DNA of 32,000 bases from Streptosporangium roseum DSM 43021 (GTDB lineage: Bacteria > Actinomycetota > Actinomycetes > Streptosporangiales > Streptosporangiaceae), in assembly GCF_000024865.1 (NCBI RefSeq), contig NC_013595.1:4091798-4123797 (forward strand). The letters run 5' to 3'. Shown here piece by piece: positions 864 through 30,709 of the stretch (position 1 is its first letter; each line of letters starts with the position of its first letter). A program made the position numbers and the translations under genes. The notes below the pieces were generated by a model. It did no database searches, was not told where the DNA came from, and worked only from the letters and a program-made list of their open reading frames with translations.

Positions 864-1003
864 CGTTGAGTACTCCTCAAGGGGGCGGCGCCAGGGGTTC
901 TTCCTGGTCACCGGGGTGTGTCTTAACGATCCACCGTTGTGGTGGAATGGATCAACACACGTTCGCGTTGCGGTCGTTTAGTTGAGCTCAAGGGTGGAGG
1001 GGC

Positions 1004-14298: not shown

Positions 14299-15231
14299 TC
14301 ATCCGGCCACCAGGGGGATCACCACCAGCAGCAGGTCGGCCGCCAGGACCATGGACAGGCTCCGTTTGCGCATCGTCCTCTCATCGGGAAGGTTCTCGTC
14401 GGAGATGCCGGGCAGCAGGCCGAGTTTGTCGATGAGGAAAGCGGCGCAGGCCGCGACGCCCAGGAGTGACCACGCCGGGCCGTAGAGCCACCACAGGCCC
14501 CACCCGACGAGCACGAGCGCGCCCGCCGTGGCCGCGCAGGCCACCAGCAGGGACCGGTAGGCGCCGTGCCGTACGGCAGGCGGGCGGTCACCGGCGGCGG
14601 CGTCTCCGGCCAGGTCCGGAATGGACCACCACAGCGAGCGTCCGAACAGCAGCACCGCCAGGCCGGCGAACACCAGCCAGACGGGCGCCGGGACGTCCGG
14701 GCGGACGGCCGAGTAGGTCGACACGCAGGGCAGGAAGGCGAAGGTCAGGGCGAAGTAGGCGGGGTTGGCGAAGCCGCGCCGCTTCAGGCGGACGGGTTCG
14801 AGGTTGTAGAGCAGGTGCAGGACGATCGCCAGCCCCACGCCGATCGCCACCGCCGGACGGCCGAGCCCCACCGAGACCGCGGTCGCCAGCACCAGTGCCA
14901 GCGTCTTCTCGATCGCGGCGCACCGGAAGGCCACGGCCGGGCTGAGCCGCCGGGTCGCGGTGGCGATGCCGCCCTTCCCCCGCGTGTGGGAGTCCGCGCG
15001 GATGTCCAGCGCCGCGTTGAGCGGATTCTGCGAGACGACGGCGAGCAGGTTGGCCAGGAGGGTGACCAGTACGGGCACGGTGAACAGCTGCCCGGGGTCG
15101 GTCGCCGCGAAGCAGGCGCCCCAGAGCACGTGACACGCGTATACCGCCGGGAATGGGTATTCGAGCCGGTGGATGCGGATCAGTGCCCGTCCCCGGGTCA
15201 TCGGCCGGCTCCGAGTGGCCAGCGAGGTCAT
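14299..15231 (-). CDS. UbiA-superfamily membrane prenyltransferase / UbiA-type terpene synthase candidate
   Basis: About 8 TM helices. First Asp-rich motif NAALDIRAD (NxxxDxxxD) and second DLAGD (DxxxD) are present. AAGGAG lies 5 nt upstream of the ATG at 15231 (the ORF track starts at 15270). It is the last gene of the terpenoid operon, 49 nt after the P450 stop. Confidence 0.8.
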   Translation of the reverse strand: MTSLATRSRPMTRGRALIRIHRLEYPFPAVYACHVLWGACFAATDPGQLFTVPVLVTLLANLLAVVSQNPLNAALDIRADSHTRGKGGIATATRRLSPAVAFRCAAIEKTLALVLATAVSVGLGRPAVAIGVGLAIVLHLLYNLEPVRLKRRGFANPAYFALTFAFLPCVSTYSAVRPDVPAPVWLVFAGLAVLLFGRSLWWSIPDLAGDAAAGDRPPAVRHGAYRSLLVACAATAGALVLVGWGLWWLYGPAWSLLGVAACAAFLIDKLGLLPGISDENLPDERTMRKRSLSMVLAADLLLVVIPLVAG

Positions 15232-15280
15232 CGAATCTCCTTGAGTGTGGAGGCCCCGGGCTTCAGCCATGGGGAGGAAG

Positions 15281-16609
15281 TCAACCCTCGGTTCTCGTCA
15301 TGGGGGTGCCCGCGGCCGTCCCGCCCGATGTCCCGGCCCGCCGGGGGCACCCGCCGACCGCCATCCTGAGCGGCCCGGGACCCATGGCGGGCCCTCGCAG
15401 GTTCGGCACCCCGGCCTCGGGGTTGAGGCAGCGGAGAGCGTGCCGGCGCAGCACCGCCGCGACGACCATCCGCATCTCCAGCATGGCCAGGTTCGCGCCG
15501 AGGCACCGGCGGGTCCCTCCGCCGAAGGGGAGATACTCCTGGGCGGATCTCCGCGTGTCCAGGAACCGCGCGGGATCGAAGCGCCACGGGTGCGGGTAGG
15601 CCTCCGGGTTGCGATGGGCCAGGGCGATGCACGGGGTGAGGCGGGTGCCCGCAGGCATGGGCCGGCCGGCGATCCGCCGGTCGGCGGTGAGCGTCCGGTT
15701 GCCGGCGACCGTGGCGGGGGGAGAGATCCGCAGGGCTTCCTGGCACACCGCGTTCAGCAGGGGGACCCTCTCGGCGGCGGAGCCGTCGTCGCCGGTCGCG
15801 GCCAGCTCCTCCTGGACGTCGTGGCGGACGCGGTCGTCGCGGTGCAGCCAGAACAGGGTCCAGGCGATCGCGGACGCGGTCGTCTCATGGCCGGCGAACA
15901 GCAGCGACACCAGCTGGTCGGAGAGCTCCTCGTCGCCGACGGGGCCGAGGGGCTCGCTTCCGGCGGACAGCCGCGCGGCGAGCGTGGACGGTCCCGCGGC
16001 CGCCGTCGCGGGACGCGCGGCCTCCAGGAGGCTGTGGACGATCTCCGTCCTGCGCCGCCGGAAGGTCCGCCACGGTGACGGCAGCGGTCCGGGCACCCGC
16101 AGGTGGCGGTAGGCGAGGGTGCGGGGCCGGGATCCGAGCGTGTACTCCACCCACCTCGTGAAGGGGCCGAGCGTCTCGTGCCCGGCGTGGCCGAGCACGA
16201 TCTGCCCGATGATCCGGAGCGTCAGGTCGCGGGTCCATTCGGGCAGGCAGAACACCTCGCCCGGGACCAGCCCGTCCAGCGCGGCGTCGACGGCGTCACG
16301 GATGGTGCCGTGGTAGGCGGCCAGCCGGTGCCCGCGCAACGCCGTACCGACCACCTTGCGGTAGGCCGCGTGCCGTGGCCCGTTGGCGAAGAGCAGGGAG
16401 TGGGGCCCGACCAGAGGTCCCAGGGTGTCGCTGCCCTCCAGGACCATCTGCTGTTCGGAGCGGAAGATCTCCCCGACCGTCTCGGGGTGCCAGACCAGCA
16501 GTCGCGGCTCCGGAGCCGAGCCGAGCTCGACCATGCCGGTCCCGTCCGCGGCGTGGGCCTCCAGGAACGACCGCGTGCGCAGGGCGAACCGGTATCCGTT
16601 GAGGTTCAC
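15281..16609 (-). CDS. Cytochrome P450 monooxygenase
   Basis: Heme loop FGGGTRRCLG, I-helix LLFAGHETTASA and ExxR (EALR). Track ORF 15281..17287 runs 226 codons too far upstream, into the cyclase gene. I start at GTG 16609 (VNLNGYRFALRTRSFLE...), which has GGAGGGGG ~9 nt upstream. Confidence 0.9.
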   Translation of the reverse strand: MNLNGYRFALRTRSFLEAHAADGTGMVELGSAPEPRLLVWHPETVGEIFRSEQQMVLEGSDTLGPLVGPHSLLFANGPRHAAYRKVVGTALRGHRLAAYHGTIRDAVDAALDGLVPGEVFCLPEWTRDLTLRIIGQIVLGHAGHETLGPFTRWVEYTLGSRPRTLAYRHLRVPGPLPSPWRTFRRRRTEIVHSLLEAARPATAAAGPSTLAARLSAGSEPLGPVGDEELSDQLVSLLFAGHETTASAIAWTLFWLHRDDRVRHDVQEELAATGDDGSAAERVPLLNAVCQEALRISPPATVAGNRTLTADRRIAGRPMPAGTRLTPCIALAHRNPEAYPHPWRFDPARFLDTRRSAQEYLPFGGGTRRCLGANLAMLEMRMVVAAVLRRHALRCLNPEAGVPNLRGPAMGPGPLRMAVGGCPRRAGTSGGTAAGTPMTRTEG

Positions 16610-16661
16610 GCCGCCACCCCCTCCGCGCCTGCCGGGGGAGGAGCGCCGGGTGCGGGGGATG

Positions 16662-18395
16662 TCATCGCTGCCTCTCCAGGATCCGGGTCCGGGCCAGGGT
16701 GCGGGCGGCCAGCGTCTCGGCCCGGATGACCGCGACGGGCGCGTAGAGGTCCTTGTCGTGCCACAGGGGCGGGTACCGCCGGGCGTCGCCCCGGCGACCG
16801 TGACCGTCGGGTCCGTCGGGTCCGTCGGGTCCGCCGCGCTCGCCGTGGCGGTCATGGCCGCGGCGCCCGCCGGATCCGTCGTGGTCGTCGCGTCCGTCGT
16901 GGTCACGGTGGTCCGCGCGATGCTGCCCGGCGAGGAAGGCGTCACCGCGCAGCACGGCGCGGCGCACCGCGCCGTCGTCGCGTGCGGGGGCCCGGAGCAG
17001 GGTCTGCATCGCGTACGCGGTCTCCTCGGAGGTGCCGGACCACAGGCCCCATGACCCGTCGTGGCGCTGGGTGCCGAGCACCCACTCGGCGGCCGCGCGC
17101 AGCGCCGCGGCGGACGACGCGTCCCCGTGGCGGGCCAGGGCCGAGACGCTGCAGACCGTGGCGTAGTAGGGGGAGGCGTGCCATTTGTCGATCCAGCTCC
17201 CGTCGGGCCGCTGCTGCCCGTGCAGCCAGTGGGAGATCTTGCCGATCGCCCGCCGGTAGCGGGCCCGGTCCGCCGCGCCGGCCTCATGGTCCCCGAAGGC
17301 CATGAGGATGTGGGCGTTGGTGCTGGTGGAAGGAGTGCGCTCGGCGGCGAAGCAGCGGAAATGGGTGTCGGCCTCGTAGGCCCAGAGGCATTCCGGGGAC
17401 CGGGGCCTGCCGATGAGCGCCAGGGCGTGGAGCGCCCCGGCGGTGTCGTCCGAATCGGGCGGCAGGCCCGCGCCGGCGGGCACGCCGAGGTCGCCGAAGG
17501 CGGCGTGCAGGCTGTGGCCCAGCTCCCGGGGCGGCGCGGTGCCCGGAAACGCCTCGGCCAACGCCGAGAGCACCCAGGCCCGCTCGAAGACGCCGATCGG
17601 CGTCACGCCCGGGACCGGGCCGTCGTGCCTGGCCTGCACGGTGTGCAGGTATTCGATCGCGCGCCGCCGCTCCGTGCCCGCCCCGTCGCCGTCCCCGGGG
17701 CCCAGCCAGGCGGCGGTGGCGGCCGGCGAGCAGCCCACGGCCCCGCCGACGGGACGCACCTGGGGAGCCTGTACGGCGGTGCCCCCCAGCGCCTCCAGGG
17801 AGTGCCAGACCTTCGGGGGCAGCGCGTGCCCCTGCCCGGCGGCATGGCGGAGCCGGTCGAGGGGGGCCGGATCCCACCCGTCGGGTGTGTGGAGGCGCCC
17901 CGAGCCGTGCCAGGCGGCCAGTCCGGGGACGGGGTGCCTCTCCAGCGCGTCCAGATGCCGGTTGATCTCGCCGACGAGCCAGGGGATGAGGAACTCCGCC
18001 CCGATGGTGTCCGGAAGGACGGCTCTCGACTGGGGGTCCAGCCGCGCGAACAGCGCGTGCAGGCCGCGGTGGACGGCACCCGCGACATCGCTGTGGCCGG
18101 ATGCGGCCCGCTCGCCGGGCCGGGCGGCGCTCACCACGGTGAACAGGGCCTCGACCGCGCTGAGGGTGGGGACCAGCACGTAGGGGCCCGGTCCTCCCCA
18201 GGTGCCGTCCGGGTTCTGGCCCCGGATCAGGAACTCGATCCGCCGCCGGTGGCCGCTCAGCCACGGTGCCGACGCCACCAGCCGGGCCGTCTCGTAGACC
18301 GAGGCGGTGACCTGACCCATGGGATCGACGGCGATCTCAGCGAGAAGGTCCTGGGGAGAGGCTCCGGCGGGACGTGCCGTACGCGTGGTGCTCAT
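16662..18395 (-). CDS. Class II terpene cyclase (DxDD type, prenyltransferase/squalene-oxidase repeat fold); probable bicyclic prenyl-diphosphate (e.g. copalyl diphosphate-type) synthase
   Basis: DxDD-type general-acid motif in LPPDSDDTAGALHAL. The N-terminal DPMGQVTASVYETARLV resembles bacterial class II diterpene cyclases. QW-like repeats are present (QNPDGTWGG, QRPDGSWIDKW, QRHDGSWGLW). GGAGGA lies upstream of the ATG at 18395. A 50-aa H/D/R/G-rich insertion sits near the C-terminus. Confidence 0.85.
   Translation of the reverse strand: MSTTRTARPAGASPQDLLAEIAVDPMGQVTASVYETARLVASAPWLSGHRRRIEFLIRGQNPDGTWGGPGPYVLVPTLSAVEALFTVVSAARPGERAASGHSDVAGAVHRGLHALFARLDPQSRAVLPDTIGAEFLIPWLVGEINRHLDALERHPVPGLAAWHGSGRLHTPDGWDPAPLDRLRHAAGQGHALPPKVWHSLEALGGTAVQAPQVRPVGGAVGCSPAATAAWLGPGDGDGAGTERRRAIEYLHTVQARHDGPVPGVTPIGVFERAWVLSALAEAFPGTAPPRELGHSLHAAFGDLGVPAGAGLPPDSDDTAGALHALALIGRPRSPECLWAYEADTHFRCFAAERTPSTSTNAHILMAFGDHEAGAADRARYRRAIGKISHWLHGQQRPDGSWIDKWHASPYYATVCSVSALARHGDASSAAALRAAAEWVLGTQRHDGSWGLWSGTSEETAYAMQTLLRAPARDDGAVRRAVLRGDAFLAGQHRADHRDHDGRDDHDGSGGRRGHDRHGERGGPDGPDGPDGHGRRGDARRYPPLWHDKDLYAPVAVIRAETLAARTLARTRILERQR
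16806..16832. repeat. 3 x 9-bp perfect tandem repeat (GTCGGGTCC) inside the cyclase gene, encoding GPDGPDGPD
   Basis: Read directly at 16806..16814, 16815..16823 and 16824..16832. It lies within a wider low-complexity coding stretch at 16773..16922. Confidence 0.9.
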
Positions 18396-18522
18396 CCATT
18401 CCTCCGAGGGGGTGAGGTGTCTTCGGGGTCGGCGCTCACGGCTCCGGCGGCGGGCTGCGGGAGCCGGTACGGTGCTGTCCTCCGTACCGGTGAGATGCGC
18501 GGCCGGTGCTCTCGGGGCCGGA

Positions 18523-19737
18523 TCACGGCTCTGGCGCGCTTCCTGAGGGCGCCGGGACGTCGTCGCCCGCGTCCGCCTGCTCGGCGAGGCGCGTCGCCTC
18601 CTCGATGAGAGCTTCGATGATCTTCGATTCCGGGACGGTGGCGACGACCCGGCCGCGGACGAAGATCTGCCCCTTGCCGTTGCCGCTCGCGACGCCGAGA
18701 TCGGCCTCGCGGGCTTCGCCGGGCCCGTTGACGACGCAGCCCATGACGGCCACCCGCAGGGGCAGGGGGAACCCGTCGAAGGCGGCGGCGACCTGGTCGG
18801 TGAGCCGGTAGACGTCGACCTGCGCCCGGCCGCAGGAGGGGCAGGAGACGATCTCCAGCCGGCGCGGCCGCAGCCCGAGGGACTGGAGGATCTGCGTCCC
18901 GACCCTGACCTCTTCCACCGGTGGAGCGGACAGGGAGACGCGGATGGTGTCGCCGATGCCCTCGGCCAGCAGGATGCCGAACGCGGTGGCGGACTTGACG
19001 GTGCCCTGGAAGGCGGGACCGGCCTCGGTGACGCCGAGATGCAGGGGGTAGTCGCAGGACGCGGCCAGCACCCGGTAGGCGGCGATCATGGTCAGCGGGT
19101 CGTGGTGCTTGACGGAGACCTTGAGATCGGCGAAGCCGTGCTCCTCGAACAGGGAGCACTCCCACAGGGCCGATTCGGCCAGCGCCTCGGGGGTGGCACT
19201 GCCGTACTTGGCCAGTAACCGCCTGTCGAGGGAACCGGCGTTGACGCCGATCCGGATCGGGATCCCGGCCGCGCCGGCCGCACGGGCGATCTCCCCCACC
19301 TTGTCGTCGAAGGCCCGGATGTTGCCGGGATTGACCCGGACTGCGGCGCACCCGGCGTCGATGGCGGCGAAGACGTATCTGGGCTGGAAGTGGATGTCGG
19401 CGATCACCGGGATGGTGGATTTCCTGGCGATCTGCGGCAGGGCGTCGGCGTCGTCCTGGGACGGTACGGCGACGCGGACGATCTCGCAGCCCGCGGCGGT
19501 GAGTTCGGCGATCTGCTGGAGGGTGGCGCCGACGTCGGCGGTGACGGTGGTGGTCATCGACTGCACCGACACCGGGGCGTCCCCGCCCACCGCGACCCCG
19601 CCCACCTGGAGCCGGCGGGTCACCCGGCGCGGCCTGAGGACGGCGGAGGCAGGCGACGGGGAGGGAGACGACCGCGGGGCCGTGGGCGGGGCGCCGGTAC
19701 CGGGCATGCCCAGGAGGACGGGGGCGCTCATGACCAT
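18523..19737 (-). CDS. ispG: 4-hydroxy-3-methylbut-2-en-1-yl diphosphate (HMBPP) synthase
   Basis: [41 protein letters not shown] and the C-terminal CPSCGR Fe-S motif are present. The start overlaps the dxs stop (19728..19730). Confidence 0.95.
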
Positions 19738-21671
19738 CCTCCGACCGGCCGGGGCTCGCCCGCCGGTGAAGGGGCCGTCCGCCCGGGGACTCCCGGGCGG
19801 ACGGCCTCCAGCACGGAGGCGGTGATCGAGCGGTGGTCCAGGCCGGCGGCGGCCAGCAGGTGGGCGCGTTCACCGTGGCCGATGAACTCCCTCGGCAGAC
19901 CGAGGGTGCGTACCGGCGTCGTCAGGCCGGCGTCGGCGCACGCGGTGGCGATCGCCGTGCCGACGCCCCCGGTACGCAGGCCGTCCTCGGCGGTGACCAC
20001 CAGATGGTGCGCGGCGGCCAGCTCGACCAGCACCGGGGAGACCGGCGCCACCCAGCGCGGGTCGACCACCGTCACGCCGACCCCGTGGTGACGGAGCTGC
20101 GCGGCGGCGGCCAGGCACGGTCCCGCGAGCGGCCCGACGGCCACGAGCAGGGCCTGGTCGCCGTGCTGGGACAGCACGTCGACGCCGTCCGGACCGCCGA
20201 GCCTCCGTGGCGCCGCGATGTCAGGGCCGGCATTGGCCTTGGGATAGCGGACCACGGTCGGCCCGCCGTCATGGCCGACGGCCTCGTGGAGCAGCTCGCG
20301 CAGCCGGGTCGCGTCGCGGGGGGCGGCGATCCGCAGTCCGGGGATCATGCCGAGCAGCACCAGATCCCACATGCCGTGGTGGCTGGGGCCGTCCGGTCCG
20401 GTGATCCCGGCCCGGTCCAGGACGAACGTGACGGGGAGCCGGTGCAGGGCGACGTCCATCAGCGCCTGGTCGAAGGCCCGGTTGCAGAAGGTCGCGTACA
20501 TCGCGACGATCGGATGCATGCCGTTCAGGGCGAGCCCCGCGGCGCAGGCGACGGCGTGCTGCTCGGCGATGCCGACGTCGAAGAAACGGTCGGGGAACCT
20601 GGTCGCGAACTCGGCCAGCCCGGTCGGGCCCGGCATCGCCGCCGTGATCGCCACCACGCCGGGATGCTCGGCGCCGATCACGGTCATCTCGTCGGCGAAC
20701 AGCGACGTCCACGACGGCGGCGCCGCGCCGGGCACGTCGTGCGGGCGTCCGGTGGCCGGGTCCAGCACCCCGATCCCGTGCATGTGGTCGGCCCTGTCGT
20801 TCTCGGCAGGGCCGTACCCCTTGCCCTTGACCGTCACCGCGTGCACCACCACGGGCCGGCGCAGGGCACGGGCCTGGCGGAGTGCCCCCTCCAGCGCGCC
20901 GATGTCGTGGCCGTCGACCGGTCCCAGGTAGGAGAAGCCCAGGCTTTCGAACACGTTGGGGACGCCCGGCCGGGGAGAGGGGACCCCGGGCCGGCGCAGG
21001 GTGGCGAGGTGGCTCGCGAGCCCGCCGACCGTGGGGGCGTAGGAGCGGCCGTTGTCGTTGAGCACGATGATCGCGGGGCGGCCGGGCGCGGCACCGAGGT
21101 TGTTCACCGCCTCCAGCGCCAGGCCGCCGGTCAGCGCCCCGTCCCCGATCACCGCCACCACGTGCCTGTCCGTGTGGCCGCGGAGCTGGAAGGCCCTCGC
21201 CAGGCCGTCGGCGTAGGACAGGGCGGTCGAGGCATGGGAGTTCTCGACGAGGTCGTGGACCGACTCCGCGCGGCTCGGATACCCGGACAGCCCGCCAGCC
21301 TGGCGCAGCCGGTCGAAGCCGCCCTGGCGGCCGGTGAGGATCTTGTGCACGTAGGCCTGGTGGCCGGTGTCGAACACGATCGCGTCCCGGGGCGAGGCGA
21401 ACACCCGGTGCAGCGCGATGCTGAGCTCCACCGCCCCCAGGTTGGGACCCAGATGACCACCCGTGGCGCTGACCTTGTCCACCAGGAAACGGCGGATCTC
21501 GCCGGCCAGTTCGGGCAGCCGGCCCGGTGGCAGGCGGCGCAGGTCGCCGGGGCCGTTGATCCGGGGGAGAAGGCCGCTCGTGATCGTCGTGCCGGTGCCG
21601 GCCGGCGTTTTCGCGGCGGAGGCGGCGTCCTGGCTCGCGTGGGGGACGGCGGTGGCGATGTCAGCGCTCAT
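19728..21671 (-). CDS. dxs: 1-deoxy-D-xylulose-5-phosphate synthase
   Basis: [36 protein letters not shown], the ThDP motif [15 protein letters not shown] and [11 protein letters not shown] are present. The protein is 647 aa. The start overlaps the ispH 3' end by 11 nt. Confidence 0.95.
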
Positions 21672-22680
21672 TCGTACGCACTTCCTTAGGCGGAGCGAAG
21701 CGGACGGTTTCGGTGGTGTGGCGGTGCTCCCGGACCCGCAGCGGCCCCAGGCCGCGGAGAAAGGCGATGACCTCCTCCACCAGGTGGTGCGGGGCCGAGG
21801 CGCCCGCGCTCAGGCCGATCACGCGGGCCCCGTGGAGCCATCCGGGTTCGATGCCGCCGGCGTCGTCGATCAGGTGGGCCGGGGTGCCCTGGCGCCGGGC
21901 GAGCTCGACCAGCCGCACCGAGTTGGAGGAGTTGACCGATCCGACGACCAGCACCAGGTCGGCGGCGGCGGCGATCCCCGCCACGGCGTGCTGCCGGTTG
22001 GTGGTGGCGTAGCAGATGTCGTCGCTGCCGGGCCCGGAGAGCGCCGGGAACCGGTCCCGCAGCGCCTCGACCACCTCGGAGGTCTCGTCCACTGCCAGGG
22101 TGGTCTGGGTCAGATAGGACACCCGGGTGGGGTCGTCGACCTCCAGGGCGGCCGCCTCGGCGGGGGTCTGGACCAGCACGCTCTGCCGCGGCGCCTCGCC
22201 GAGGGTGCCCTCGACCTCCTCGTGCCCGGCGTGCCCGATCAGCACGACGGTGTCGCCGCGCGCGGCGAAGCGGCGGGCCTCGACGTGCACCTTGGTGACC
22301 AGGGGGCAGGTGGCGTCGACCACCCGCAGCCCCTTGCGGCCGGCCTGCGCCCGGACCGCCGGGGAGACGCCGTGCGCGGAGAACACCACGGTCTCCCCGT
22401 CGGGCACCTCGTCGAGCTCCTCGACGAAGACGGCGCCGCGCCGCCGTAGATCGGCGACCACGTGAACGTTGTGCACGATCTGCTTACGGACGTAGACGGG
22501 GGCGCCGCGGTCGGCCAGGACGCGTTCCACGGTCTCGATCGCCCGCTCGACACCGGCGCACAGCGAGCGGGGTGAGGCCAGCAGCACCGTCCGGACGGAG
22601 CCGTCGGGCAGCCCGCCGACCGGCGGTCCGTCCATGGTCAGCCCGTCCGTAGGCGTCGTCGTGGGCATGTGGTCGGCCAT
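21661..22680 (-). CDS. ispH: 4-hydroxy-3-methylbut-2-enyl diphosphate reductase (canonical, all catalytic residues present)
   Basis: [67 protein letters not shown] and GASAP match the E. coli residues C12/H41/H74/C96/H124/E126/T167/C197/S225-N227/S269. The ATG at 22680 lies 1 nt after the upstream gene's stop. Confidence 0.95.
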
Positions 22681-22681
22681 G

Positions 22682-23728
22682 TCAGCGGTCCCGCCGGGTG
22701 ATCAGCTGGGCCAGCAGGCGGAGGTCGCCGGCCGCTTCCGGGGCGGGGTCGGCCTGCCGCAGGCAGGCCAGCGCGGCGGCGAGGTTGGCCTCGGCCTCCC
22801 GCTGCGCCCAGGCGCGGGCACCGGCCGCCTCGATGAGGTCGGCGGCATGGGCGAGGGACCGCTCGTCCAGGATCCGGTCGCCGTGGTAGAGCCGGGCCAG
22901 CCGCTCGCCCGCGGGGGTGCCCGAGGTGAGGGCGGCGACCACCGGCAGGGACTTCTTGCGGGCGGCCAGGTCGGAGAAGACGGGTTTGCCGGTGACGGCG
23001 GGATCCCCCCAGATCCCCAGGAGATCGTCCGTGAGCTGGAAGGCCAGCCCGAGATGGTGGCCGAACCGCCCGAACAGCCCGGCGCGGTCCTGGCCGGCGC
23101 CACCGGCCAGCGCGCCGATCTCGCAGGCGCAGCCCAGCAGCGCCCCGGTCTTGCCCGCGGCCATCTCGACGCACTGGGCGAGGGTGACGTCGGTACGGGT
23201 TTCGAACGCCAGGTCGGCGCTCTGCCCTGAGCACAGCCGTAGCAGCGAGCCGGTCAGCACCCTCAGGCCCGGGCTCCCGGCGAGCAGGTCCAGGGCGAGG
23301 GTCAGCAGCACGTCGCCGGCCAGGATGGCCTCGCCGACCCCGAACACCGACCACGCGGCCGGCCGGTGCCTGCGGGTCAGGTCGCCGTCCATGATGTCGT
23401 CGTGCAGCAGGGAGAAGTCGTGGACCAGCTCCACCGCGACCGCGGCCGGCACCGCCGCCCGGACGGTCTCCGCGTCCTCGCCGCCGGCCGCCCACGCCGA
23501 GGCCAGCACCAGGGCCGGCCGGACCGCCTTGCCGCCGCCCTGCCGCGGGCGGCCTTCGGCGTCCCACCAGCCCGCGTGGTAGCCGGCGATGTGGCGGATC
23601 TCCTCCGGCAGGCGGTCCACCGCGCCGCGGTGAGCCGGTCCGGCCAGCTCCTGGGCCGCGGCCAGTACCTCATGTGCCGATCGCGTGGTGCTGTCGGTGA
23701 AGCCGAGCACTGGTGCGGTCGTCACCAC
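22682..23728 (-). CDS. Polyprenyl diphosphate synthase, probable geranylgeranyl diphosphate synthase
   Basis: [14 protein letters not shown] and [13 protein letters not shown] are present. I prefer GTG at 23728 ([10 protein letters not shown]...), with GGAAAGAGG ending 5 nt upstream, over the track start at 23827. Chain length cannot be read from sequence (Phe at -5 of FARM); GGPP is inferred from context. Confidence 0.85.
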
Positions 23729-24129
23729 ACTCACCTCTTTCCTGTTTTTCCGGATTTCCGGGCGCTGCCGGAGCGATATGAACGGACGCGGCCGACGCCG
23801 CATCCCCGCGACGAAGGGCAGGCTCACTTCCAGTACGGCTGGCGCCGCAATGTCTCGGAACCCCCCGGCGCCGGGGGAGTGGTTTCATTTGCCGGCCGTG
23901 TTTCACGCCGGTGGCCGAGGTCGCGGGGCGCGCCTCCGGGCCACCGGTGGACGGAAAGGAAAGGAGGCGGAGAGCCGTACGGCCGGAGCGGCGGCCGCGG
24001 CCGTTGCCGCAGATGGAAGCGGTGAGCCGGACGGCCGTCCCCGGGCGGGCGCCCATCGGCGGGCGGCCCGCCCGGCCCTGTGCCCGAGAACGGAGGACTA
24101 TTGTCGCCGCGCCGGGTGAGAGGACCCGG

Positions 24130-25512
24130 ATGGCGACAGGACACCGACCGAACGTCCGGCTGCGGGCACTGCTGACCGAGACCGGGTGGACCGGCCAGCA
24201 ACTGGCCGGCGCGGTGAACGATCTCGGCGTCGAGGCGGGGGTGACGCTGAGGTACGGCCGGGCGGCGGTCGCGCACTGGCTGGCGGGCATGCGTCCGCGC
24301 TCTCCGGTGCCGGACCTGGTGGCCGAGGCGCTGTCGCGCCGGCTCGGGCGCTCCCTGACCGCCGCCGAGATCGGTCTGTCGCGGCCGGATCGGGAGCCCC
24401 GCGACCCTGCCGGCGCCGACGTCGGCGGCGCGGCCTGGTGGGAGGCGGACGCCCTGGCCGGGCTGGTCGAGCTGCACGCCGGGCCCCGCCCCGGCCGGCG
24501 GCGGGTGCTGGAGGAATGCGTCTACAACCTGGCCGCGCTGACCGTCCCCGGCTGGGCCGACGCCACGGTGGCGGCGGTGACCGCCGGCGGCGGCCGCGAT
24601 CCGGCGCCGCGGATAGGCGCCCCGCAGGTGGAGGCGGCCGCGGCGATGGCCCAGGTGTTCTCCTACACCGACACGGCCTTCGGCGGCGGCCAGGCCCGCC
24701 GGGCCCTGTCGGGGTATCTCGCCGTGGACGTCGTGCCGTGGCTACGGTGCCGGATGAGCTCAACCACCCGCCGCAGGATGCTGTCGATCGCCGCCGAGCT
24801 GACATACCTGTGCGGTTTCATGTGCTTCGACGAGCAACTCCACGGTGCCGCGCAGCGCTACTACCAGGCGGCCCTGAAGCTCGCCGCCGAGAACGGCGAC
24901 GCGGTCGGTTACGCGGTCACCCTGCGGGCGCTGTCGGTTCAGGCCTACACCCTGGGACACCACCGTCATGCCCTCGACCTCGCCGAAGCGGCCCTGTCGG
25001 GTGTCCCGGGGGCGATCGAGCCCGGCACCCGGGCCTTCCTCCACGGGCAGGCCGCCGTCGCCGCGGCCGCGAGCCGGAGCGAGTGCCGCGCCGCGCTGAC
25101 GCACCTCCGCGCGGCCGAGCACCATCTGGATCACGCCGTCGCCACGACGGGGACCGGCGCGGAGACGGTGGGCGCCTACCACCAGGCGTCCCTCGCCCAT
25201 CAGCACGCCGCGGTGCTGACCGCGCTGGAGGACCGGCCCGCCGCCGTCGAGGCCCTGACCACCTCCATACGGCACCGCCCGGCCACCGAACGCCGGGCCC
25301 GCGCGCTCACCTCCGCCACCCTGGCGGGGCTCTACCTCGACCAGGGGCATCTGGAACAGGCCGCGGCCACCTGGCACACCTTCCTCGACGACTATCCCCA
25401 TCTGAGCAGCGGACGGACCCGCGCCGCCCTGGCGACGCTCAAAGCGCGACTCCGCCCCTACCAGCGCAACACCCTCGCCAGAGGGGTGCTGCAGCGCGCC
25501 GCGACCATGTGA
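24130..25512 (+). CDS. Transcriptional regulator, N-terminal HTH (XRE-like) with C-terminal helical TPR-like domain
   Basis: MATGHRPNVRLRALLTETGWTGQQLAGAVNDLGVEAGVTLRYGRAAVAHWLAGMRP... is an N-terminal pattern I recognise from a family of actinomycete regulators. The C-terminal half is Ala/Leu-rich repeats (YYQAALKLAAENGD...). GAGAGGA lies 7 nt before the ATG at 24130. It is divergent from the terpenoid operon. Confidence 0.7.
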   Translation: MATGHRPNVRLRALLTETGWTGQQLAGAVNDLGVEAGVTLRYGRAAVAHWLAGMRPRSPVPDLVAEALSRRLGRSLTAAEIGLSRPDREPRDPAGADVGGAAWWEADALAGLVELHAGPRPGRRRVLEECVYNLAALTVPGWADATVAAVTAGGGRDPAPRIGAPQVEAAAAMAQVFSYTDTAFGGGQARRALSGYLAVDVVPWLRCRMSSTTRRRMLSIAAELTYLCGFMCFDEQLHGAAQRYYQAALKLAAENGDAVGYAVTLRALSVQAYTLGHHRHALDLAEAALSGVPGAIEPGTRAFLHGQAAVAAAASRSECRAALTHLRAAEHHLDHAVATTGTGAETVGAYHQASLAHQHAAVLTALEDRPAAVEALTTSIRHRPATERRARALTSATLAGLYLDQGHLEQAAATWHTFLDDYPHLSSGRTRAALATLKARLRPYQRNTLARGVLQRAATM

Positions 25513-25639
25513 ACCGGCGCCGGAGGCGTGTATCGGGCCGCCCACGGGGAACCCATGGCCTGGCGGGTCGCGCGAGCCCGCACCGAAACCCGAATCCGGC
25601 GCCGGGGGCTCGGCCTCCGGCACGACCGAGGACACAGGC

Positions 25640-26902
25640 TTGAACAGGACCAAGATCCGGGAACGTTTCGCCTGCCAGAAGGTACCCAGGGGAGGAGTGG
25701 TCGTCGCCTCCTCCTTCGGACACCCCGACCGGGGGGTGATCGAGTGTCCGGCCGCGCCGGCCCTGGGCGCGGCGCTGGCCCGCGACGGGCTGCGCGTGCG
25801 CTACGCGCCGCTGACCGCGGACCCGGCCGGCCGGCCCGCTCCCCGCGGCGGCCACATGCTCGCCGTCTCCTACCTCGAACGCGACGGCCGTGCCGCCGGC
25901 CTCGCGGCCGCCGTCCACCCCGACGATCATGCCGCCACCGAGGTGGTCGGCGACGCGATGAGGCGGTGGGAGGCCGCCATGCGCAGCCGCCGCGTCCTGC
26001 TGGCCGGCACCCGGCCGGCCTGTCCCGGTGCCCGGCGGGCCCTGGAGATCACCCGGGACACGGCCGGCGGCGGCCAGGCGGTGTTCAGCTACGGCCCCGT
26101 CACCGACGACCCCCACCAGGCCGGGGCCCTGACCCGCGAGGGCGTCACCACGGTCACCGATCTCGACCGGCTCCCGGAGGGGGCCGGCGTCGTCTTTCCC
26201 GCCCACGGCGTGTCCCTGGCGCTGCGCGCCGAAGCCGCCGCCCGTGGCCTGACGATCATCGACGCCACCTGCCCCCTGGTGGCCGCGGCCCACGCCGAGG
26301 TGGCGCGCTTCACCGAACGCGGAGACCTCACCGTCGTGATCGGCAGGTCCGGTGACGCGGCCGTCTCCGCCGTCCTCGGCCAGGCCCCGGAATCGACCGT
26401 CCTGGTGGAGAGCGCCGCCGACGTGGAGCGGCTCCGGCCGGCCGACCCGGAGGCGATCTCCTACCTGGTCCAGACCGGCATCCCCGTCGAGCAGGCCACT
26501 CCCGTCGTCGCCGCCCTCCGCGCCCGCTTCCCCGCCCTGCGCGGTCCCGACCCCGGCGACTTCTGCTATCACGCCTCCGACCGCGCGAGCGCCGTCGCCT
26601 CCATCACCGGCGCCAGCGATCTCCTGCTCATTGCCGCGGGATCACACTGCCCGGACGCCCGGCACGTCGTCCGCCTCGCCGAGCCGGCCGGCGTCCCGGC
26701 GCAGGTCGTCACCGGCGTCGCCGACCTGTGCCCGGACCGGCTGCGGGAGGCCGCCACCGTCGCTCTCACCAGCGCCCGGTCGGCTCCGGCCGGGCTCTCC
26801 GAGCAGATCGTCACGATCCTGTCCGGCCTGGGCCCTCTCGGCGTCGTCAACCGTCACGTCACCAGCGACATCGTCACCGGCCGGACGCGCGCGCGGGCGT
26901 GA
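25640..26902 (+). CDS. Divergent IspH/LytB-like Fe-S protein with N-terminal extension (probably not an HMBPP reductase)
   Basis: From aa ~118 it aligns with the neighbouring ispH and with E. coli IspH (RRVLLAGTRPACPGARRA, FPAHGVS, DATCPLVAAAH, FCYHASDRA, SARSAP). All 3 cluster Cys are kept, but [10 protein letters not shown] is GRSGDAAVSA and SVNSSNS is GSHCPDA. The start is uncertain: TTG at 25640 is the ORF limit, and GC3 rises only from ~25697. Confidence 0.7.
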   Translation: MNRTKIRERFACQKVPRGGVVVASSFGHPDRGVIECPAAPALGAALARDGLRVRYAPLTADPAGRPAPRGGHMLAVSYLERDGRAAGLAAAVHPDDHAATEVVGDAMRRWEAAMRSRRVLLAGTRPACPGARRALEITRDTAGGGQAVFSYGPVTDDPHQAGALTREGVTTVTDLDRLPEGAGVVFPAHGVSLALRAEAAARGLTIIDATCPLVAAAHAEVARFTERGDLTVVIGRSGDAAVSAVLGQAPESTVLVESAADVERLRPADPEAISYLVQTGIPVEQATPVVAALRARFPALRGPDPGDFCYHASDRASAVASITGASDLLLIAAGSHCPDARHVVRLAEPAGVPAQVVTGVADLCPDRLREAATVALTSARSAPAGLSEQIVTILSGLGPLGVVNRHVTSDIVTGRTRARA

Positions 26903-26928
26903 CCGGGGGGGGCCGGGCTCCCGGAGGC

Positions 26929-27957
26929 CTACCCGTACGCCGGGCGGCGTTCCGGGGCGCCGGCCAGGCGGGCCAGGCGGCGGTAGGAGTCGAGCCGCTC
27001 GCCGTGGTCGAAGGTGTTCATGGTGACCAGCACCTCGTCGGCGCCGCTGCGCTCGACCAGCTCCCGCACCGCGGCCGCGACCTCGTCCGGCGTGCCGTGG
27101 ATCTGCCCCCGCAACGCCTCCTCGAAGAGGGCGCGTTCCCGGTCGGTCATGTCCATGGCGAGGATCTCCCCGGCGGGGGCGAGCGGCGGGAAGACCCCGT
27201 GGGTGCGGGAGAAGGCGGTCGCCCACGCCTCGGGCACCTGCAGGCGGCGGGCCCGCTCGGCGGTCTCGGCGACCGCGATGTTGGCCGCGACGACGACGTA
27301 CGGCCGCGCCGACCAGGCCGAGGGCCGGAAGAGACCGCGATAACGGGTGATCGCCTGCAGCGTGCGCTCCCGGTCGCCTGCCGCCGCGATCACCAGCGGC
27401 AGCCCGTGCTCGGCGGCGATGTCCGCGCCGGCACCCGTGGCGAGCACGTATGCGGGCACCCGCAGACCTTCGGCGGGAAACGCGTGCACGCCCGGATGCG
27501 CCTTCTGGTCACCGGTGAAGTAGCCGAGCAGCTCGGCCAGCTGGTCGCCGAAGCCCTCCGCGTCGTGCTTGTCGTGGCCGAGCGCGCGCCGGATGCCGCC
27601 GGTGAAGCCGACCGAACGGCCCAGGCCCATGTCGATACGGCCCGGGTAGAGCGATTCGAGGACGCCGAACTGCTCGGCGACGACCAGCGGCCGGTGGTTG
27701 GGGAGCATCACGCCGCCGGTGCCGATCCGGATGCGCGAGGTCGCGGCGGCGACGGCGGCGGCCAGGACGGTCGGTGCCGAGCCCGCCACCCCTGGCACCC
27801 CGTGGTGCTCCGACACCCAGAAGCGGTGGTAGCCCAGGGCTTCGGCCTCCTGCGCGAACCTCACGGTGTCGCGCAGTGCCTGCGTGTGGTCGTGCCCCCG
27901 GCGGATGAGGGAGCGATCCAGGATCGAGAGCCGCGTCGTCTGAAGTGCTGCGTTCAC
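26929..27957 (-). CDS. LLM-class (luciferase-like) flavin-dependent oxidoreductase
   Basis: RLSILDRSLIRRGHD...FAQEAEALGYHRFWVSEHHGVPGVAGSAPTVLAAAVAAATSRIRIGTGGVMLPNHRPLVVAEQFGVLESLYPGRIDMGLGRS is a typical LLM family signature. I chose GTG at 27957; the ORF extends to ATG 28047, which has no convincing RBS. Confidence 0.85.
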   Translation of the reverse strand: MNAALQTTRLSILDRSLIRRGHDHTQALRDTVRFAQEAEALGYHRFWVSEHHGVPGVAGSAPTVLAAAVAAATSRIRIGTGGVMLPNHRPLVVAEQFGVLESLYPGRIDMGLGRSVGFTGGIRRALGHDKHDAEGFGDQLAELLGYFTGDQKAHPGVHAFPAEGLRVPAYVLATGAGADIAAEHGLPLVIAAAGDRERTLQAITRYRGLFRPSAWSARPYVVVAANIAVAETAERARRLQVPEAWATAFSRTHGVFPPLAPAGEILAMDMTDRERALFEEALRGQIHGTPDEVAAAVRELVERSGADEVLVTMNTFDHGERLDSYRRLARLAGAPERRPAYG

Positions 27958-28620
27958 CCTCCCTTCAACATCCTTCTCCGCCGGGGATTCCCCGGCAGGG
28001 CTCCCGGAGGCCCCGGGACACGCGGCCTCGAGGTGTTCTCCGGACATCCGGATGGGGATCGTGAGCGTGAAGGAGGGTGGGCGGGCCTCCGCGCCGAGCC
28101 GGCCCGCCGCGCCGTCGCCGGGGACCGGGAGGGCGCGCGGGCCGCGACCGCGCGAGCCGGGACAATCGTTGACTCAAGCGCTTGGTTGTTTTGGCGGATA
28201 ATCCGGAAAGCCCCTCACCTCCGCCGGTGGCCGGAGGCGGCTGGCGGGGATTTCCGCTGGTCGAATTGTTTGTCAAGCGCCCGCGGGGCATCCGTGTCCG
28301 GAGCGGCACGCCGTGGCCCGGCCGGCGGCGCCGTATTAGGCGGGCCGGCGTGTATCCGGCGTGATTGGAATCAACGTGGCGCCATCCGGTGCGTTACGGT
28401 CTCCGGGCGGGAGTCCGGGATTCGGGGAGGGGGCCTTCGTCACCGGTCTGAGCTGCGAGAACAATATTTCCGGGCGATTTTGTGCGCGGTGTTCCGGGGC
28501 TGCGGGATTGCCGTTGATTCACCGGCCGGCGGCTTTTATCACGCGGCGCTTATCTCAACAGATTTTCGTGGATTTGCGATACGAAATCGCCGTCTGACTG
28601 AACTGTCTGACGCGGAGATA

Positions 28621-28682: not shown

Positions 28683-29381
28683 ATGAAACGCCTCCGAAAT
28701 CTCGTTCTCGCCGTGACCGCCGTCGTGCTGGCACTCGCGTTCGTCCCGACCTCCGCTTGGGCGGCCACCACTCAGATCCACAGGAACGACCAGTTCGGCG
28801 CGCTCTACTCCGGCAAGGTCAGGGCGACGCTGCTCGGCAACGTGTCGATCAGCACCACCCTCGCCACCGCCACCTGCAACGTCGGCGTCATCGACGGCAC
28901 CGTGCAGTCGAACGGCACCATGCTGAACGTCTCGGCCTACAACTTCAGCAACAGCCCCGGCCCGCAGTGCCCCAACAGCGCCGGCGGCCAGTCCAGCGTG
29001 ACCGCGGTCGGGCTCCCCTGGAACGGCGGCAACGTCACCTTCGCCCCGGTCCTCCCCAACGGACGCGACGGCACCATAACCCTCAACAGCGTCAAGGTCA
29101 CCTCGTCGAGCACCGGCTGGTTCGGCACCATCAGCTGCACCTACAAGGGTTCCGGCGCCGGCAACAGCATCGTCCTGGACGCCTTCAACTCCACCAACCC
29201 CAACCGTCCGGTCATCGGGGTGGTCCAGGCCCAGGCCGGGGCGGTCAACTACACCCTCAACAAGGACAGCGGCAGCTTCCTGTGCCCCAGCACGGCCAGC
29301 TTCAGCGCCACCTTCCAGCTTCTCGGTGAGACCGTCGCCAACTCGGGCGTCTACAACCAGAAGCTCCACCTCACCGCCTGA
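28683..29381 (+). CDS. Secreted hypothetical protein (Sec signal peptide, 4 Cys, Ser/Thr/Asn/Gly-rich, beta-rich)
   Basis: MKRLRNLVLAVTAVVLALAFVPTSAWA|ATTQ is a clear signal peptide with an AxA cleavage site. There is a strong RBS, and GC3 is high in this frame. I recognise no domain. Confidence 0.7.
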   Translation: MKRLRNLVLAVTAVVLALAFVPTSAWAATTQIHRNDQFGALYSGKVRATLLGNVSISTTLATATCNVGVIDGTVQSNGTMLNVSAYNFSNSPGPQCPNSAGGQSSVTAVGLPWNGGNVTFAPVLPNGRDGTITLNSVKVTSSSTGWFGTISCTYKGSGAGNSIVLDAFNSTNPNRPVIGVVQAQAGAVNYTLNKDSGSFLCPSTASFSATFQLLGETVANSGVYNQKLHLTA

Positions 29382-29578: not shown

Positions 29579-30709
29579 TCAGACGCGAGCACACGTGCAC
29601 GACGCCCCCTCGTGGCTGGCGGCCTGACATGTCAGCTCGCGCATGGCCTGGTAGACGCAGAGCAGGGCCCAGATCTCCTGTGCCACCATCTCCGGGCTCC
29701 TCGACCGCAGCGTGATCGCCGGACCTCTGCGGTCGGAGTGGAGCCAGGCCAGCGCGCTGTCCATGACCCATCGCTCGGCGTAGCGCGCCGCCAGCTCCGA
29801 CGCGGACGCCTGCCCGGGGTCGACCAGCGTTGTGATCAGCCATTCCGCGCCGGGAAGGGGGATGACCCGGAGGGGCGCGCCGCCCAGGCCGGCCGGTCTG
29901 GACAGGTAGGACCCGTCCTCGAAGCTGCGTCCTATCGGCAGCGCGTCGGCCCCGGTGACCCCCCACAACAGGTGCGTGCCGGTCTCGGCCGCCTGGCGCC
30001 ACAGTTCGAACCCCCAGCGGCCGGAGCGGGCGAGCAGCAGCATGTCGGACTCCAGGCACCGCAACAGCCTCCGGGCCAGGGTGCGCTCCTCCACGGCGGA
30101 GCTGCCGAACGTCGCGTCGATCAACGCGTGCGTGCCGTTCTCCGCCACGGCCACCACCCGGACGCAGGGGAACCGGGCCGCTCCGTCCGGATAGCCGAAC
30201 GCCGAGTTGTCGCGGGTCTCGGGGACCACCAGCGTGGTGCCGTCCATCGTGACCGGCCGGAGGCCGGCCAGCCACGACCGGGAGGCCTGCGGTTCCGCCA
30301 CGGGCCCGGTCACCCGGCAGAAGAGCACGCGCAGGGGCTCCGCGCCGAGCCGTGCCCGGGCCCGGCTGATCGCCGAGGCGCTGGGAGGCTCCCAGGTGTA
30401 GACCCAGCGCGACCGCCATGCAAGCCCGTTCAACAACAGGCGCATGACCTGGTCATAGTTCTTGTCAGAGAACAGGCAAAGGGCCAGCACGTAATAAATC
30501 GTCAGCCGGGCCGGCAGCGCCCGTCGCCGCCTCTCCGCGCATCCGCTGACCCCTATCACCTCGTCGAGCAGCGATATCGGAAAGACCGAGGTGAGAAAAC
30601 CGATCGACAACTGATCTGCCAGCCGCCCATCCTCCGACGGAGTCTTCACAGCGTAACTTTGCCTGAAAGGGGGGCGCGTCACGTTATAAGCAAGTGCCTG
30701 TCTTTTCAA
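29579..30709 (-). mobile_element. IS4-family transposase gene (Nterm_IS4 + DDE_Tnp_1-like), probably decayed
   Basis: N-terminal LSIGFLTSVFPISLLDEVI...RRRRALPARLTIYYVLALCLF...ASAISRARARLGAEPL matches the IS4 transposase N-terminal domain. The first catalytic Asp context VTMDGTTL is present. The second Asp position reads LLLARSGRWGF and the YREK signature reads Y-R-D-H (YAERWVMDSALAWLH). I could not find terminal inverted repeats. The 5' flank is lower in GC (30430..30760). Confidence 0.7.

Follow-up and report, generated by a model that had tools for sequence, protein, structure and literature searches.

The window, i.e. the whole 32,000-nucleotide stretch of Streptosporangium roseum DNA analysed here, carries on its minus strand a terpenoid operon (14299..23827), whose members were assigned by Pfam: a polyprenyl synthase (22682-23827), IspH (21661..22680), DXS (19728-21671), IspG (18523-19737), an SHC-like class II cyclase (16662-18395), a P450 (15281 to about 16650) and a UbiA-type enzyme (14299-15297). 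The IspH of this operon is, by Pfam, NCBIfam and alignment, a canonical cluster-borne enzyme with all catalytic residues, and it served as the comparison copy. Divergent from the operon, on the plus strand, lies the gene of an HTH-TPR regulator (24130..25512), which is followed on the same strand, after a spacer of 127 bp (25513..25639), by an IspH-like gene (25640..26902). The preliminary description of this DNA had placed the IspH-like gene directly after a regulator divergent from the terpenoid operon; this is correct, and the regulator can now be assigned to the NsdA family (PF27520, SP15_N). Its frame is open from 23911, and the ATG at 24130 suits the family N-terminus. When compared with NsdA and NsdB of Streptomyces (NF053720, NF050130, NF050135), it is a clear family member (364 bits against NCBIfam NF053720, cutoff 75), but its scores with the NsdA and NsdB equivalog models fall far short of the cutoffs (88 vs. 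830 and 100 vs. 700 bits, respectively). Its homologs carry PF27520 and are named XRE-HTH/TPR. NsdA-type regulators are repressors of antibiotic production. Binding of NsdA homologs to DNA was demonstrated by EMSA and ChIP-seq (PMC12243394); an IspH-like partner is not mentioned in the papers on NsdA that we consulted.

The IspH-like gene encodes 420 amino acids between a TTG start and a TGA stop. The ORF is intact, has a codon-position GC content (0.78/0.58/0.92) typical of coding DNA in the S. roseum genome, and matches Pfam LYTB. We consider the TTG at 25640 to be the true start, because the family alignment has the consensus N-terminus MNR[ST]xxxE, the orthologs begin with LNRTK or MNRSK at the equivalent point, a GAGGA (25628-25632) is located 7 nt upstream, and the frame upstream of the TTG is not conserved in comparison with S. 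canum. The estimate of about 60 to 115 extra N-terminal residues, made earlier, is thereby settled at its upper end; the lower figure of 60 did not hold. Neither a terminator-like nor a promoter-like site was predicted in the 127-bp spacer. Over 23700-27200, which was scanned for both kinds of site, promoter-like sites were absent and a single terminator-like hairpin was predicted, which lies inside the IspH-like gene and is at chance level. The intergenic inverted repeats are GC-rich palindromes, and their meaning is doubtful.

Residues 119-394 (25994..26821) form the LytB/IspH trefoil body and match positions 1-266 of the 267 of the PF02401 profile (E 6e-55). In BLASTP the protein is 41% identical to the canonical IspH of the operon over 297 amino acids (E 1e-66). 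Residue equivalences were derived from a MAFFT alignment that included E. coli IspH, whose numbering is used here for the conserved positions. The three ligands of the [4Fe-4S] cluster are kept: Cys128 (26021..26023), Cys211 (26270..26272) and Cys309 (26564..26566) correspond to C12, C96 and C197 of the E. coli enzyme, and all three occupy invariant columns in an alignment of 108 sequences. Of the diphosphate-binding residues H41, H74, S225, S226, N227 and S269 there remain only H74 (H189 of the protein) and S269 (S381). D156 (26105..26107) takes the place of the diphosphate ligand H41, D239-A240-A241 (26354..26362) that of H124-x-E126, with which the proton relay is gone, and C337-P338-D339 (26648..26656) that of S225-S226-N227, the diphosphate cradle. 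In addition, G is found in place of T168, A in place of T200 and D in place of N202, while T167 is kept. The Asp that replaces N227 was gained throughout the family: at least 90% of the 108 homologs share D339. Every residue call of the preliminary description was upheld by this alignment.

The protein falls below every NCBIfam IspH cutoff (best score 195 bits vs. a cutoff of 420; TIGR00216 143 vs. 188), whereas the canonical IspH of the operon reaches about 422-437 bits with these models. Judged from its residues, it can hardly be a normal HMBPP reductase, since those needed to make isoprenoid precursors are lost; the earlier doubt about such an activity was well founded. The [4Fe-4S] cluster is probably still held by the three cysteines. 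The fold appears to be preserved: AF2 modelled the full-length protein with a mean pLDDT of 92.6 and a pTM of 0.87, and both a Foldseek search with this model (E. coli IspH 3SZU, 3F7T and 3KE8, TM 0.84, E 1e-27) and a PDB profile search (E 1e-84) returned IspH structures only.

The body is preceded by an N-terminal domain (residues 1-115, 25640..25984), which is beta-rich with two helices in the AF2 model (pLDDT about 88-93) and is conserved across the 108 homologs and across 263 representative clusters. The protein scores 154 bits (E 6e-49) with the A2 profile of this domain, whose seed contains the sequence itself; for relatives not included in the seed the scores are 66-149 bits. The domain could be assigned neither to a known fold nor to a Pfam family, and a Foldseek search of the PDB with the domain alone gave no significant match (best E 0.04, TM 0.26), not to the P. 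falciparum IspH chain 4n7b either. The idea that the domain is a duplicated LytB lobe was rejected, as hhalign against the LytB body gave a probability of 0.7%, and a weak BLAST match bearing on the same idea (E 0.075) was noise.

The IspH-like protein is not an isolated case. It has 583 homology matches, and in most of the best 120 the match extends over 98% of the query and takes in the N-terminal domain. An HMM of this domain found 263 clusters (50% identity), nearly all of them fused to a LytB-like body without E126, and in an NJ tree (306 columns, without support values) these E126-less proteins form one clade apart from the canonical actinobacterial IspH. The conserved clade that had been asked about in the preliminary description thus exists. 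Its signature gains are P72, G168, D202 (within S-D-R) and D227, together with the absence of E126, and all of these are present in the protein of the window. The Streptosporangium subclade has in addition acquired R at 268 and H at 199, near the pocket, and the subclade of the window protein has also lost H124. The Cys triad is almost universal in the family, and even the short forms at L078 and L085, which lack about 80 residues, keep it. Some regulator-paired members (L173, L054; Amycolatopsis keratiniphila, Lentzea) have lost the whole of lobe 1 and/or two or three of the Cys ligands. The genome scan was queried with A3, a clade-specific segment of the N-domain family; the plasmid collection held canonical IspH genes only, and H1 of Nonomuraea gerenzanensis is likewise a canonical IspH.

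We found no literature description of N-extended, E126-less IspH-like proteins, which agrees with the earlier remark that no characterised class was known. By the criteria of sequence, they are a large undescribed actinobacterial family, labelled IspH in databases in error: the lost residues make it almost certain that members so labelled are not IspH. Counts of MEP-pathway genes are therefore inflated, and metabolic models and BGC annotation can be misled. The family represents the re-use of an essential Fe-S enzyme scaffold, and its members can be arranged in a series from an N-extended active form through proteins with the Cys triad and no catalytic residues to those with a deleted lobe and lost Cys ligands.

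It is useful to compare the protein with the known forms of IspH. With the canonical enzyme it has in common the trefoil fold, the three cysteines, H74 and S269, but it lacks E126, H124, H41, T168, T200 and S225-S226-N227, and has instead P72, G168, D202, D227 and the 115-residue N-terminal domain; its genomic partner is a regulator (in a sister clade a MetE-like enzyme) and not the MEP genes. The first member of the above series is represented by P0034 of Egibacteraceae, in which a homologous N-terminal domain (32% identity) is fused to a LytB body in the same manner. P0034 differs in that none of its catalytic residues is lost, that its place in the tree is among the canonical IspH proteins of actinobacteria and that its gene belongs to an ispH-dxs-ispG operon. 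It is presumably functional as an enzyme and can serve as a model of the ancestor. Other fusions and variants of IspH have been described, namely IspH-RPS1, IspH-UbiA and the N-terminal conserved domain of the plant and cyanobacterial enzymes (Rao et al. 2015, PMC4746011). These are also IspH bodies with extra domains, but their catalytic residues are intact, and activity was seen in the one that was assayed; the actinobacterial E126-less type with the N-terminal domain is not among the fusions reported there (PMC4746011).

The gene neighbourhoods were compared across relatives. The NsdA-family regulator and the IspH-like gene occur together, as direct neighbours or no more than two genes away from each other, in the window and at 12 other distinct loci (among them L006, L007, L008, L009, L010, L011, L054, L060, L078, L089 and L167), with the regulator gene in upstream, convergent or divergent orientation. 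In a reverse look-up, in which regulators of Amycolatopsis keratiniphila, Streptacidiphilus and Nonomuraea were picked blind to their neighbours, a LytB-like gene with the N-terminal domain was found within 7 kb in all three cases. The pair flanks a polyprenyl synthase, mostly together with MEP genes, in the window and at L006, L007, L009-L011, L060 and L078. L008 and L054 have the pair without terpene genes, and the clusters near the pairs of the reverse look-up are polyketide, not terpene, clusters, L173-L175 flanking PKS genes. The pairing with the regulator does not depend on terpene chemistry: the neighbour that stays the same from genus to genus in the branch of the window is the regulator and not any terpenoid tailoring gene. 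This constancy, and the fact that in Amycolatopsis, Nonomuraea and Streptacidiphilus the same pair is found next to polyketide clusters, weaken the suggestion that the protein is an Fe-S enzyme whose substrate is an intermediate of the neighbouring terpenoid operon.

The arrangement is different in type A, which comprises the most abundant relatives and most of the soil relatives. Here the IspH-like gene shares an operon with the gene of a short MetE-like methionine synthase, the regulator is absent, and MTHFR-like and methyltransferase-like genes are also among the neighbours. Some loci of other types, L031, L067, L085, L090, L115 and L162, also have no regulator within 10 kb. The location of type A genes in a metabolic operon lacking the regulator suggests catalysis somewhere in the family. 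No riboswitch was found with Rfam, at the gathering threshold, upstream of either type of gene (the window and six type A loci); the sole match, in L005, was to an unrelated sRNA/TnpB region. Cys36, a conserved residue of the N-terminal domain, was considered and rejected as a general fourth ligand of the cluster, because many type A members carry Ser at this position.

In our best reading, to which we give a probability of about 45%, the protein would be an Fe-S-bearing sensory or co-regulatory partner of the regulator, or a pseudo-enzyme belonging to it, and the regulator would in turn control the divergent terpenoid operon. As an IspH descendant no longer catalytic towards HMBPP, it may form a two-gene module with the NsdA-family regulator. 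The input could be the state of the oxygen- and iron-labile cluster or a ligand in the remodelled acidic pocket; the signal would be passed to the regulator by contact between the two proteins, plausibly via the TPR domain, and the output would be expression of the adjacent biosynthetic cluster, here the polyprenyl synthase-IspH-DXS-IspG-cyclase-P450-UbiA operon. The pairing with the regulator in the branch of the window makes signalling more likely than catalysis, and the loss of lobe 1 or Cys ligands in the regulator-paired L173 and L054 fits a non-enzymatic role. The lack of a terminator between the two genes was also counted for a module. Against this reading stand the type A operon and the loci of other types without a regulator. 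It must also be noted that adjacency can equally mean that the regulator controls the gene of an enzyme, and that the conserved gained Asp residues and the conserved pocket are as compatible with a new ligand or substrate as with sensing. Of the functions proposed earlier, a ligand-sensing pseudo-enzyme comes closest to the partner reading, although neither the regulator as partner nor the family-wide picture had been foreseen.

To our knowledge the input signals of NsdA-type regulators are unknown. If the partner reading is true, it offers a concrete candidate for such an input and a possible means of activating silent clusters. We would only tentatively extend it to a previously unrecognised two-protein module of actinomycetes, in which an IspH-derived [4Fe-4S] protein, stripped of its catalytic residues and provided with a new N-terminal domain, would sense redox state, iron, oxygen or a small ligand and control an NsdA-family HTH-TPR factor that gates terpenoid and polyketide clusters, a sister clade having been recruited to a methionine/C1 operon.

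Beside the open iron site, the conserved acidic pocket may be the seat of new chemistry or of ligand sensing. The former possibility, in our view less probable than the partner reading but its main rival, deserves consideration. The protein could be a neofunctionalised [4Fe-4S] enzyme that uses the open iron site and the acidic pocket (D156, D239, D314, D339, H189) on a non-diphosphate substrate, e.g. for hydration, dehydration or reduction. The near universality of the three cysteines, even in the short L078 and L085 forms, is consistent with such a role, as are the residues gained family-wide, the conserved pocket, the high-confidence AF2 trefoil and the type A operon with its MetE-like, MTHFR-like and methyltransferase-like genes; moreover, hydration of acetylenes is known for IspH (PMC8837944). 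On the other hand, the regulator-paired members of Amycolatopsis keratiniphila and Lentzea lack two or three cysteines and a whole lobe, no candidate substrate is common to the terpene, PKS and non-BGC contexts, and dN/dS is about twice that of the neighbouring biosynthetic genes. In one possible variant the enzyme might make or break a small signal read by the adjacent TPR regulator, by analogy with the synthase/receptor pair AfsA/ArpA.

An improbable alternative is a feedback sensor of MEP or prenyl diphosphates (HMBPP, IPP/DMAPP, MEcPP), which would be bound via a Mg2+ bridge formed with the new Asp residues and signalled to the regulator, so that supply is matched to demand. The polyprenyl synthase and, in most cases, MEP genes beside the pair at the eight loci named above would suit this function, and so would R268 and H199 near the pocket in the Streptosporangium subclade and the existence of P0034, the ancestor-like form with the N-terminal domain, as a bona fide IspH. 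However, the direct ligands of the diphosphate have been lost from the pocket, which is net acidic, the pair occurs also at PKS clusters and at loci without terpenoid genes, and the Mg2+-bridged binding is pure speculation.

It is very improbable that the gene is a paralog of the cluster IspH that is decaying or without function and was kept by chance. Within the locus it evolves fastest (66% amino acid identity vs. 78-84% for the neighbours), its dN/dS, calculated from tblastn-anchored codon alignments, is 0.39-0.58, and the loss of H124 in the window subclade could be taken as a further step of decay. Against this, the ORF is free of frame disruptions in six orthologs spanning a dS of about 0.6, the pocket positions are better conserved than the remaining body, the gained residues are conserved, hundreds of family members share motifs, N-terminal domain and synteny, and the AF2 prediction is confident; the decay considered in the preliminary description is not supported by these data. 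It is hardly credible that the protein is still an HMBPP reductase, i.e. a back-up or inhibitor-resistant IspH working with different residues, as would be allowed by its LytB fold, Cys triad, H74 and S269, since all the residues listed above as lacking are replaced, E. coli IspH is made nearly inactive by a single mutation of E126 (E126Q/D/A) or H124 (H124A/F) (PMC8837944), a fully canonical IspH is encoded 3 kb away in the same cluster, and the scores are below all equivalog cutoffs; a resistant-target copy was rejected because the catalytic residues are gone.

Returning to the sensory partner of the regulator, there are precedents for Fe-S proteins in such a role. In aconitase/IRP1, FNR, NsrR and the WhiB-like proteins the integrity of a labile [4Fe-4S] cluster reports oxygen, NO or iron status to the machinery of transcription. 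The likeness to the IspH-like protein would be one of working principle only, as there is no kinship in sequence or fold. Closer in descent is IspH-RPS1, whose 4Fe-4S cluster has been proposed as a possible switch probing iron or oxygen (PMC4746011). The locus described here differs from those Fe-S regulators in that the putative sensor and the DNA-binding protein are separate polypeptides.

The IspH-like gene lies in high-GC actinomycete DNA whose closest protein matches are from Streptosporangium. Its ORF (25640..26902, +) is open over 420 aa, with a coding-type GC content by codon position of 0.78/0.58/0.92. Residues 119-394 of the product match Pfam LYTB (E 6e-55), and BLASTP aligned it with the canonical IspH of the window (21661..22680, -) at 41% identity over 297 aa. 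The protein falls far under the cutoff of every NCBIfam IspH model (best 195 bits vs 420); the canonical copy reaches 422-437 bits, close to or at the cutoff of the two actinobacterial-type equivalogs, and well exceeds that of TIGR00216. The N-terminal extension, put at ~60-115 aa in the preliminary description, is 115 residues and not 60 residues long, and it is a real domain, with a start supported by the family consensus. TTG-AAC-AGG-ACC (LNRT) at 25640 occupies the exact place of the consensus start MNR[ST]xxxE, orthologs begin at the same point with LNRTK or MNRSK, and GAGGA is found 7 nt 5' of the TTG. The NCBI model of S. canum is longer (457 aa), its extra part being out of frame in the window. 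In the AlphaFold2 prediction (pLDDT ~88-93) the N-domain (residues 1-115) is rich in beta structure and has two helices. The domain has no match in Pfam, Foldseek found no significant neighbour in the PDB (best E 0.04), and hhalign detected no relationship to the LytB lobes (probability 0.7%).

Aligned by MAFFT with E. coli IspH, whose sequence as used is identical to that of the PDB chains, the protein bore out one by one the residue calls made earlier by eye (original residues are numbered as in E. coli, numbered replacements as in the window's protein). C12, C96, C197, H74 and S269 are retained, H41 is replaced by D156, and the positions of H124 and E126, for which equivalents might have been missed by eye, are occupied by D239 and A241. 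S225-S226-N227 became C337-P338-D339, and T168, T200 and N202 became G, A and D, respectively. In E. coli IspH the mutants E126Q/D/A and H124A/F are almost inactive (PMC8837944), thus, judged from sequence, HMBPP reductase activity is very unlikely for the IspH-like protein, in agreement with the earlier view that it does not make IPP/DMAPP.

The protein had 583 homologs at E<=1e-10. Most of the best 120 are ~420 aa long and match with 98% query coverage, N-domain included, and only three of these 120 have the canonical residue pattern. The others keep the three cysteines and usually also H74 and H124, with A/G/R at 41, A/V at 126, mostly P at 167 and x-P/A-D at 225-227. When only the N-domain served as profile, a search of 1.84 billion representative proteins matched 263 clusters (50% identity), with the domain essentially always N-terminal to a LytB-like body; none of their full-length members had the canonical pattern. 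Besides the losses, gains are also conserved in an alignment of 108 sequences: FPAHG (P72), Q[PT]G[IV]P (G168), CY[AH]ASDR (D202) and D227. Profile search, alignment and an NJ tree thus recovered a conserved clade of such E126-less proteins. In the tree, which carries no support values, all N-extended, E126-less proteins form one clade, whose sister comprises canonical actinobacterial IspH and an Egibacteraceae protein, P0034. The latter combines the N-domain with all catalytic residues and is located in an ispH-dxs-ispG operon. In two Egibacteraceae MAG loci (L091 5183-9458, L092 3253-7528) such an N-domain IspH with all canonical catalytic residues is encoded by the first gene of the ispH-dxs-ispG operon. 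It likely resembles the form from which the degenerate family arose: a functional IspH with the N-domain was likely duplicated, and catalysis was then lost in one copy.

A full-text literature search found no description of N-extended, E126-less IspH-like proteins, the PDB holds canonical IspH only and no such member, and NCBIfam has no dedicated model for them. A systematic survey of IspH variants lists other fusions, but this architecture is absent from it (PMC4746011). These proteins are IspH superfamily members whose architecture is new and whose role very probably is new as well. We consider it established, with little room for doubt, that the gene is real, that its product is not an HMBPP reductase and that it is a member of an IspH-derived family that is both conserved and undescribed.

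Clade-specific motifs were used to retrieve 80 loci among 185,579 species genomes and another 80 among metagenomes, and the neighbouring genes at these loci were classified. Type A contexts (~65 genome and ~72 metagenome loci, mostly Streptosporangiaceae-like soil MAGs) have the order PAC2 (+), beta-carbonic anhydrase (-), IspH-like (+) and a short (~345 aa) MetE-like methionine synthase (+), the last sharing 78-85% identity between most loci; some loci have an MTHFR-like gene, an unknown ~500-aa gene and a second MetE-like gene inserted. This arrangement, strongly conserved in the majority clade (L001-L005, L012-L088, L093-L172; e.g. L001 8001-10396), points to a link of the E126-less Fe-S protein with methionine/C1 metabolism.

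In type B contexts, which include the window, an NsdA-family HTH-TPR regulator (NCBIfam NF053720, Pfam PF27520) adjoins the IspH-like gene. It is upstream on the same strand in the window (24130..25512) and in L006, L007, L009, L010 and L011, convergent in L008 (Spirillospora), L054 (Lentzea) and L060, divergent in L089 and L167, and two genes away in L078 (Amycolatopsis anabasis). The pairing was also examined in reverse, with three regulator homologs, each on a long contig of another genus (Amycolatopsis keratiniphila, Streptacidiphilus sp. and Nonomuraea sp.) and chosen blind to its neighbours. All three had a LYTB-domain gene nearby (in convergent overlap with the regulator, ~6.5 kb away and one gene off, respectively), and all three products matched the N-domain HMM with 66-89 bits. 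LytB genes number just a few per 9-10 Mb genome, so this co-location is far beyond chance. Co-occurrence with terpene clusters held at some type B loci, where the cyclase varies (SHC-like in the window, with UbiA-type and P450 genes; Terpene_syn_C_2 in L007; Pyr4-like in L060), but not at others: the biosynthetic neighbours at the three reverse-test loci are polyketide synthases, and L008 and L054 showed no terpenoid genes within 10 kb. What stays constant beside the IspH-like gene is therefore the regulator and not any terpenoid tailoring step. No terminator-like site was found in the 127-bp spacer between the two genes, which is compatible with their co-transcription.

We tentatively favour, at a probability of about 45%, a sensory or co-regulatory partnership of the IspH-like protein with the NsdA-family regulator. 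The regulator would be modulated by the state of a labile cluster or by a ligand bound in the remodelled acidic pocket; as NsdA homologs bind DNA (PMC12243394), the output of the pair would be control of the adjacent biosynthetic cluster. There is a precedent in the IspH-RPS1 fusions, whose cluster was proposed to act as an iron/oxygen switch (PMC4746011).

The main rival, a re-purposed Fe-S enzyme, we rate as somewhat less likely; the conservation of the gained Asp residues and the metabolic operon context of the type A relatives speak for it. In a more exotic variant the protein would be a signal synthase and the regulator its receptor. Short members of the family (~340-370 aa), several of them regulator-paired, bear on this question: L173 of A. 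keratiniphila (9278-10312, -), L054 (9413-10465), L078 (~9420-10490) and L085 (~9440-10537) entirely lack the first LytB lobe, between C12 and C96. L078 and L085, with ~80 residues deleted there, still have the three cysteines, the Lentzea protein (L054) has C197 only, having lost two of the three ligands, and that of A. keratiniphila has none. Such a gradient is as expected of a scaffold kept for binding or signalling, not for catalysis. The Cys triad is kept in most members, which argues that the Fe-S cluster would still matter in these, including the window's protein.

That the protein is an HMBPP/IPP feedback sensor seems improbable. A decaying paralog, one of the options raised in the preliminary description, is more improbable still: the reading frame is undisrupted in the window, S. 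minutum, S. canum, Streptosporangium sp. LJ11, sp. NPDC023963 and the L007 contig, and its dN/dS (0.39-0.58) is clearly <1, although above that of IspG, DXS, canonical IspH and the regulator (0.12-0.39). Moreover, 42 active-site-region positions surpass the remainder of the body in conservation, with 86% vs 73% at LJ11 distance and 71% vs 54% at L007 distance. Given the replaced E126 and H124, we hardly credit a still-active IspH.

Upstream, 14299-23827 (-) has the appearance of a diterpenoid-type cluster that includes MEP genes of its own: it encodes a polyprenyl synthase, IspH, DXS and IspG together with an SHC-like class II cyclase, a P450 and a UbiA-type enzyme. As listed, the ORF of the P450 (15281-17287) runs into that of the cyclase (16662-18395), so the P450 probably starts near 16650 instead. 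For the regulator, the frame is open from GTG 23911, but ATG 24130 fits the family N-terminus. Relatives conserve, at the DNA level, a 485-aa ORF in a different frame (24186..25643), with dN/dS >1 in that frame; this is a shadow ORF of the kind typical of high-GC DNA, unfit for annotation. In A. keratiniphila (L173 7523-7723, -) and Streptacidiphilus (L174 7311-7583, -), a small DUF5988 gene, divergently upstream of the regulator, heads a PKS/FAS-like gene set, which may be a conserved regulated cluster.

Convergent with the IspH-like gene, 26 bp between the stop codons, is an MsnO8-family luciferase-like (LLM) oxidoreductase gene (26929-28047, -), also present in S. minutum and S. canum; LJ11 and NPDC023963 have an ornithine cyclodeaminase-like gene instead, and L090 has a different LLM gene upstream of the IspH-like gene. 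The conserved locus may end around 28-29 kb, where the GC content is down to 0.66. Beside an IS4-family transposase gene (Nterm_IS4 + DDE_Tnp_1; 29579-30709, -), a 232-aa protein is encoded (28683-29381, +) that begins like a signal peptide and matches no Pfam family. In MAG contigs L017, L047, L055, L072, L074 and L081 the IspH-like gene appears in two tblastn segments (around 9200-10450), which may be long-read assembly frameshifts or genuine pseudogenes. L005 contains, at 965-1557 (+), an Rfam match to Sernc389 (Saccharopolyspora sRNA 389; 157 bits), antisense to and overlapping an OrfB_IS605/TnpB-like gene.
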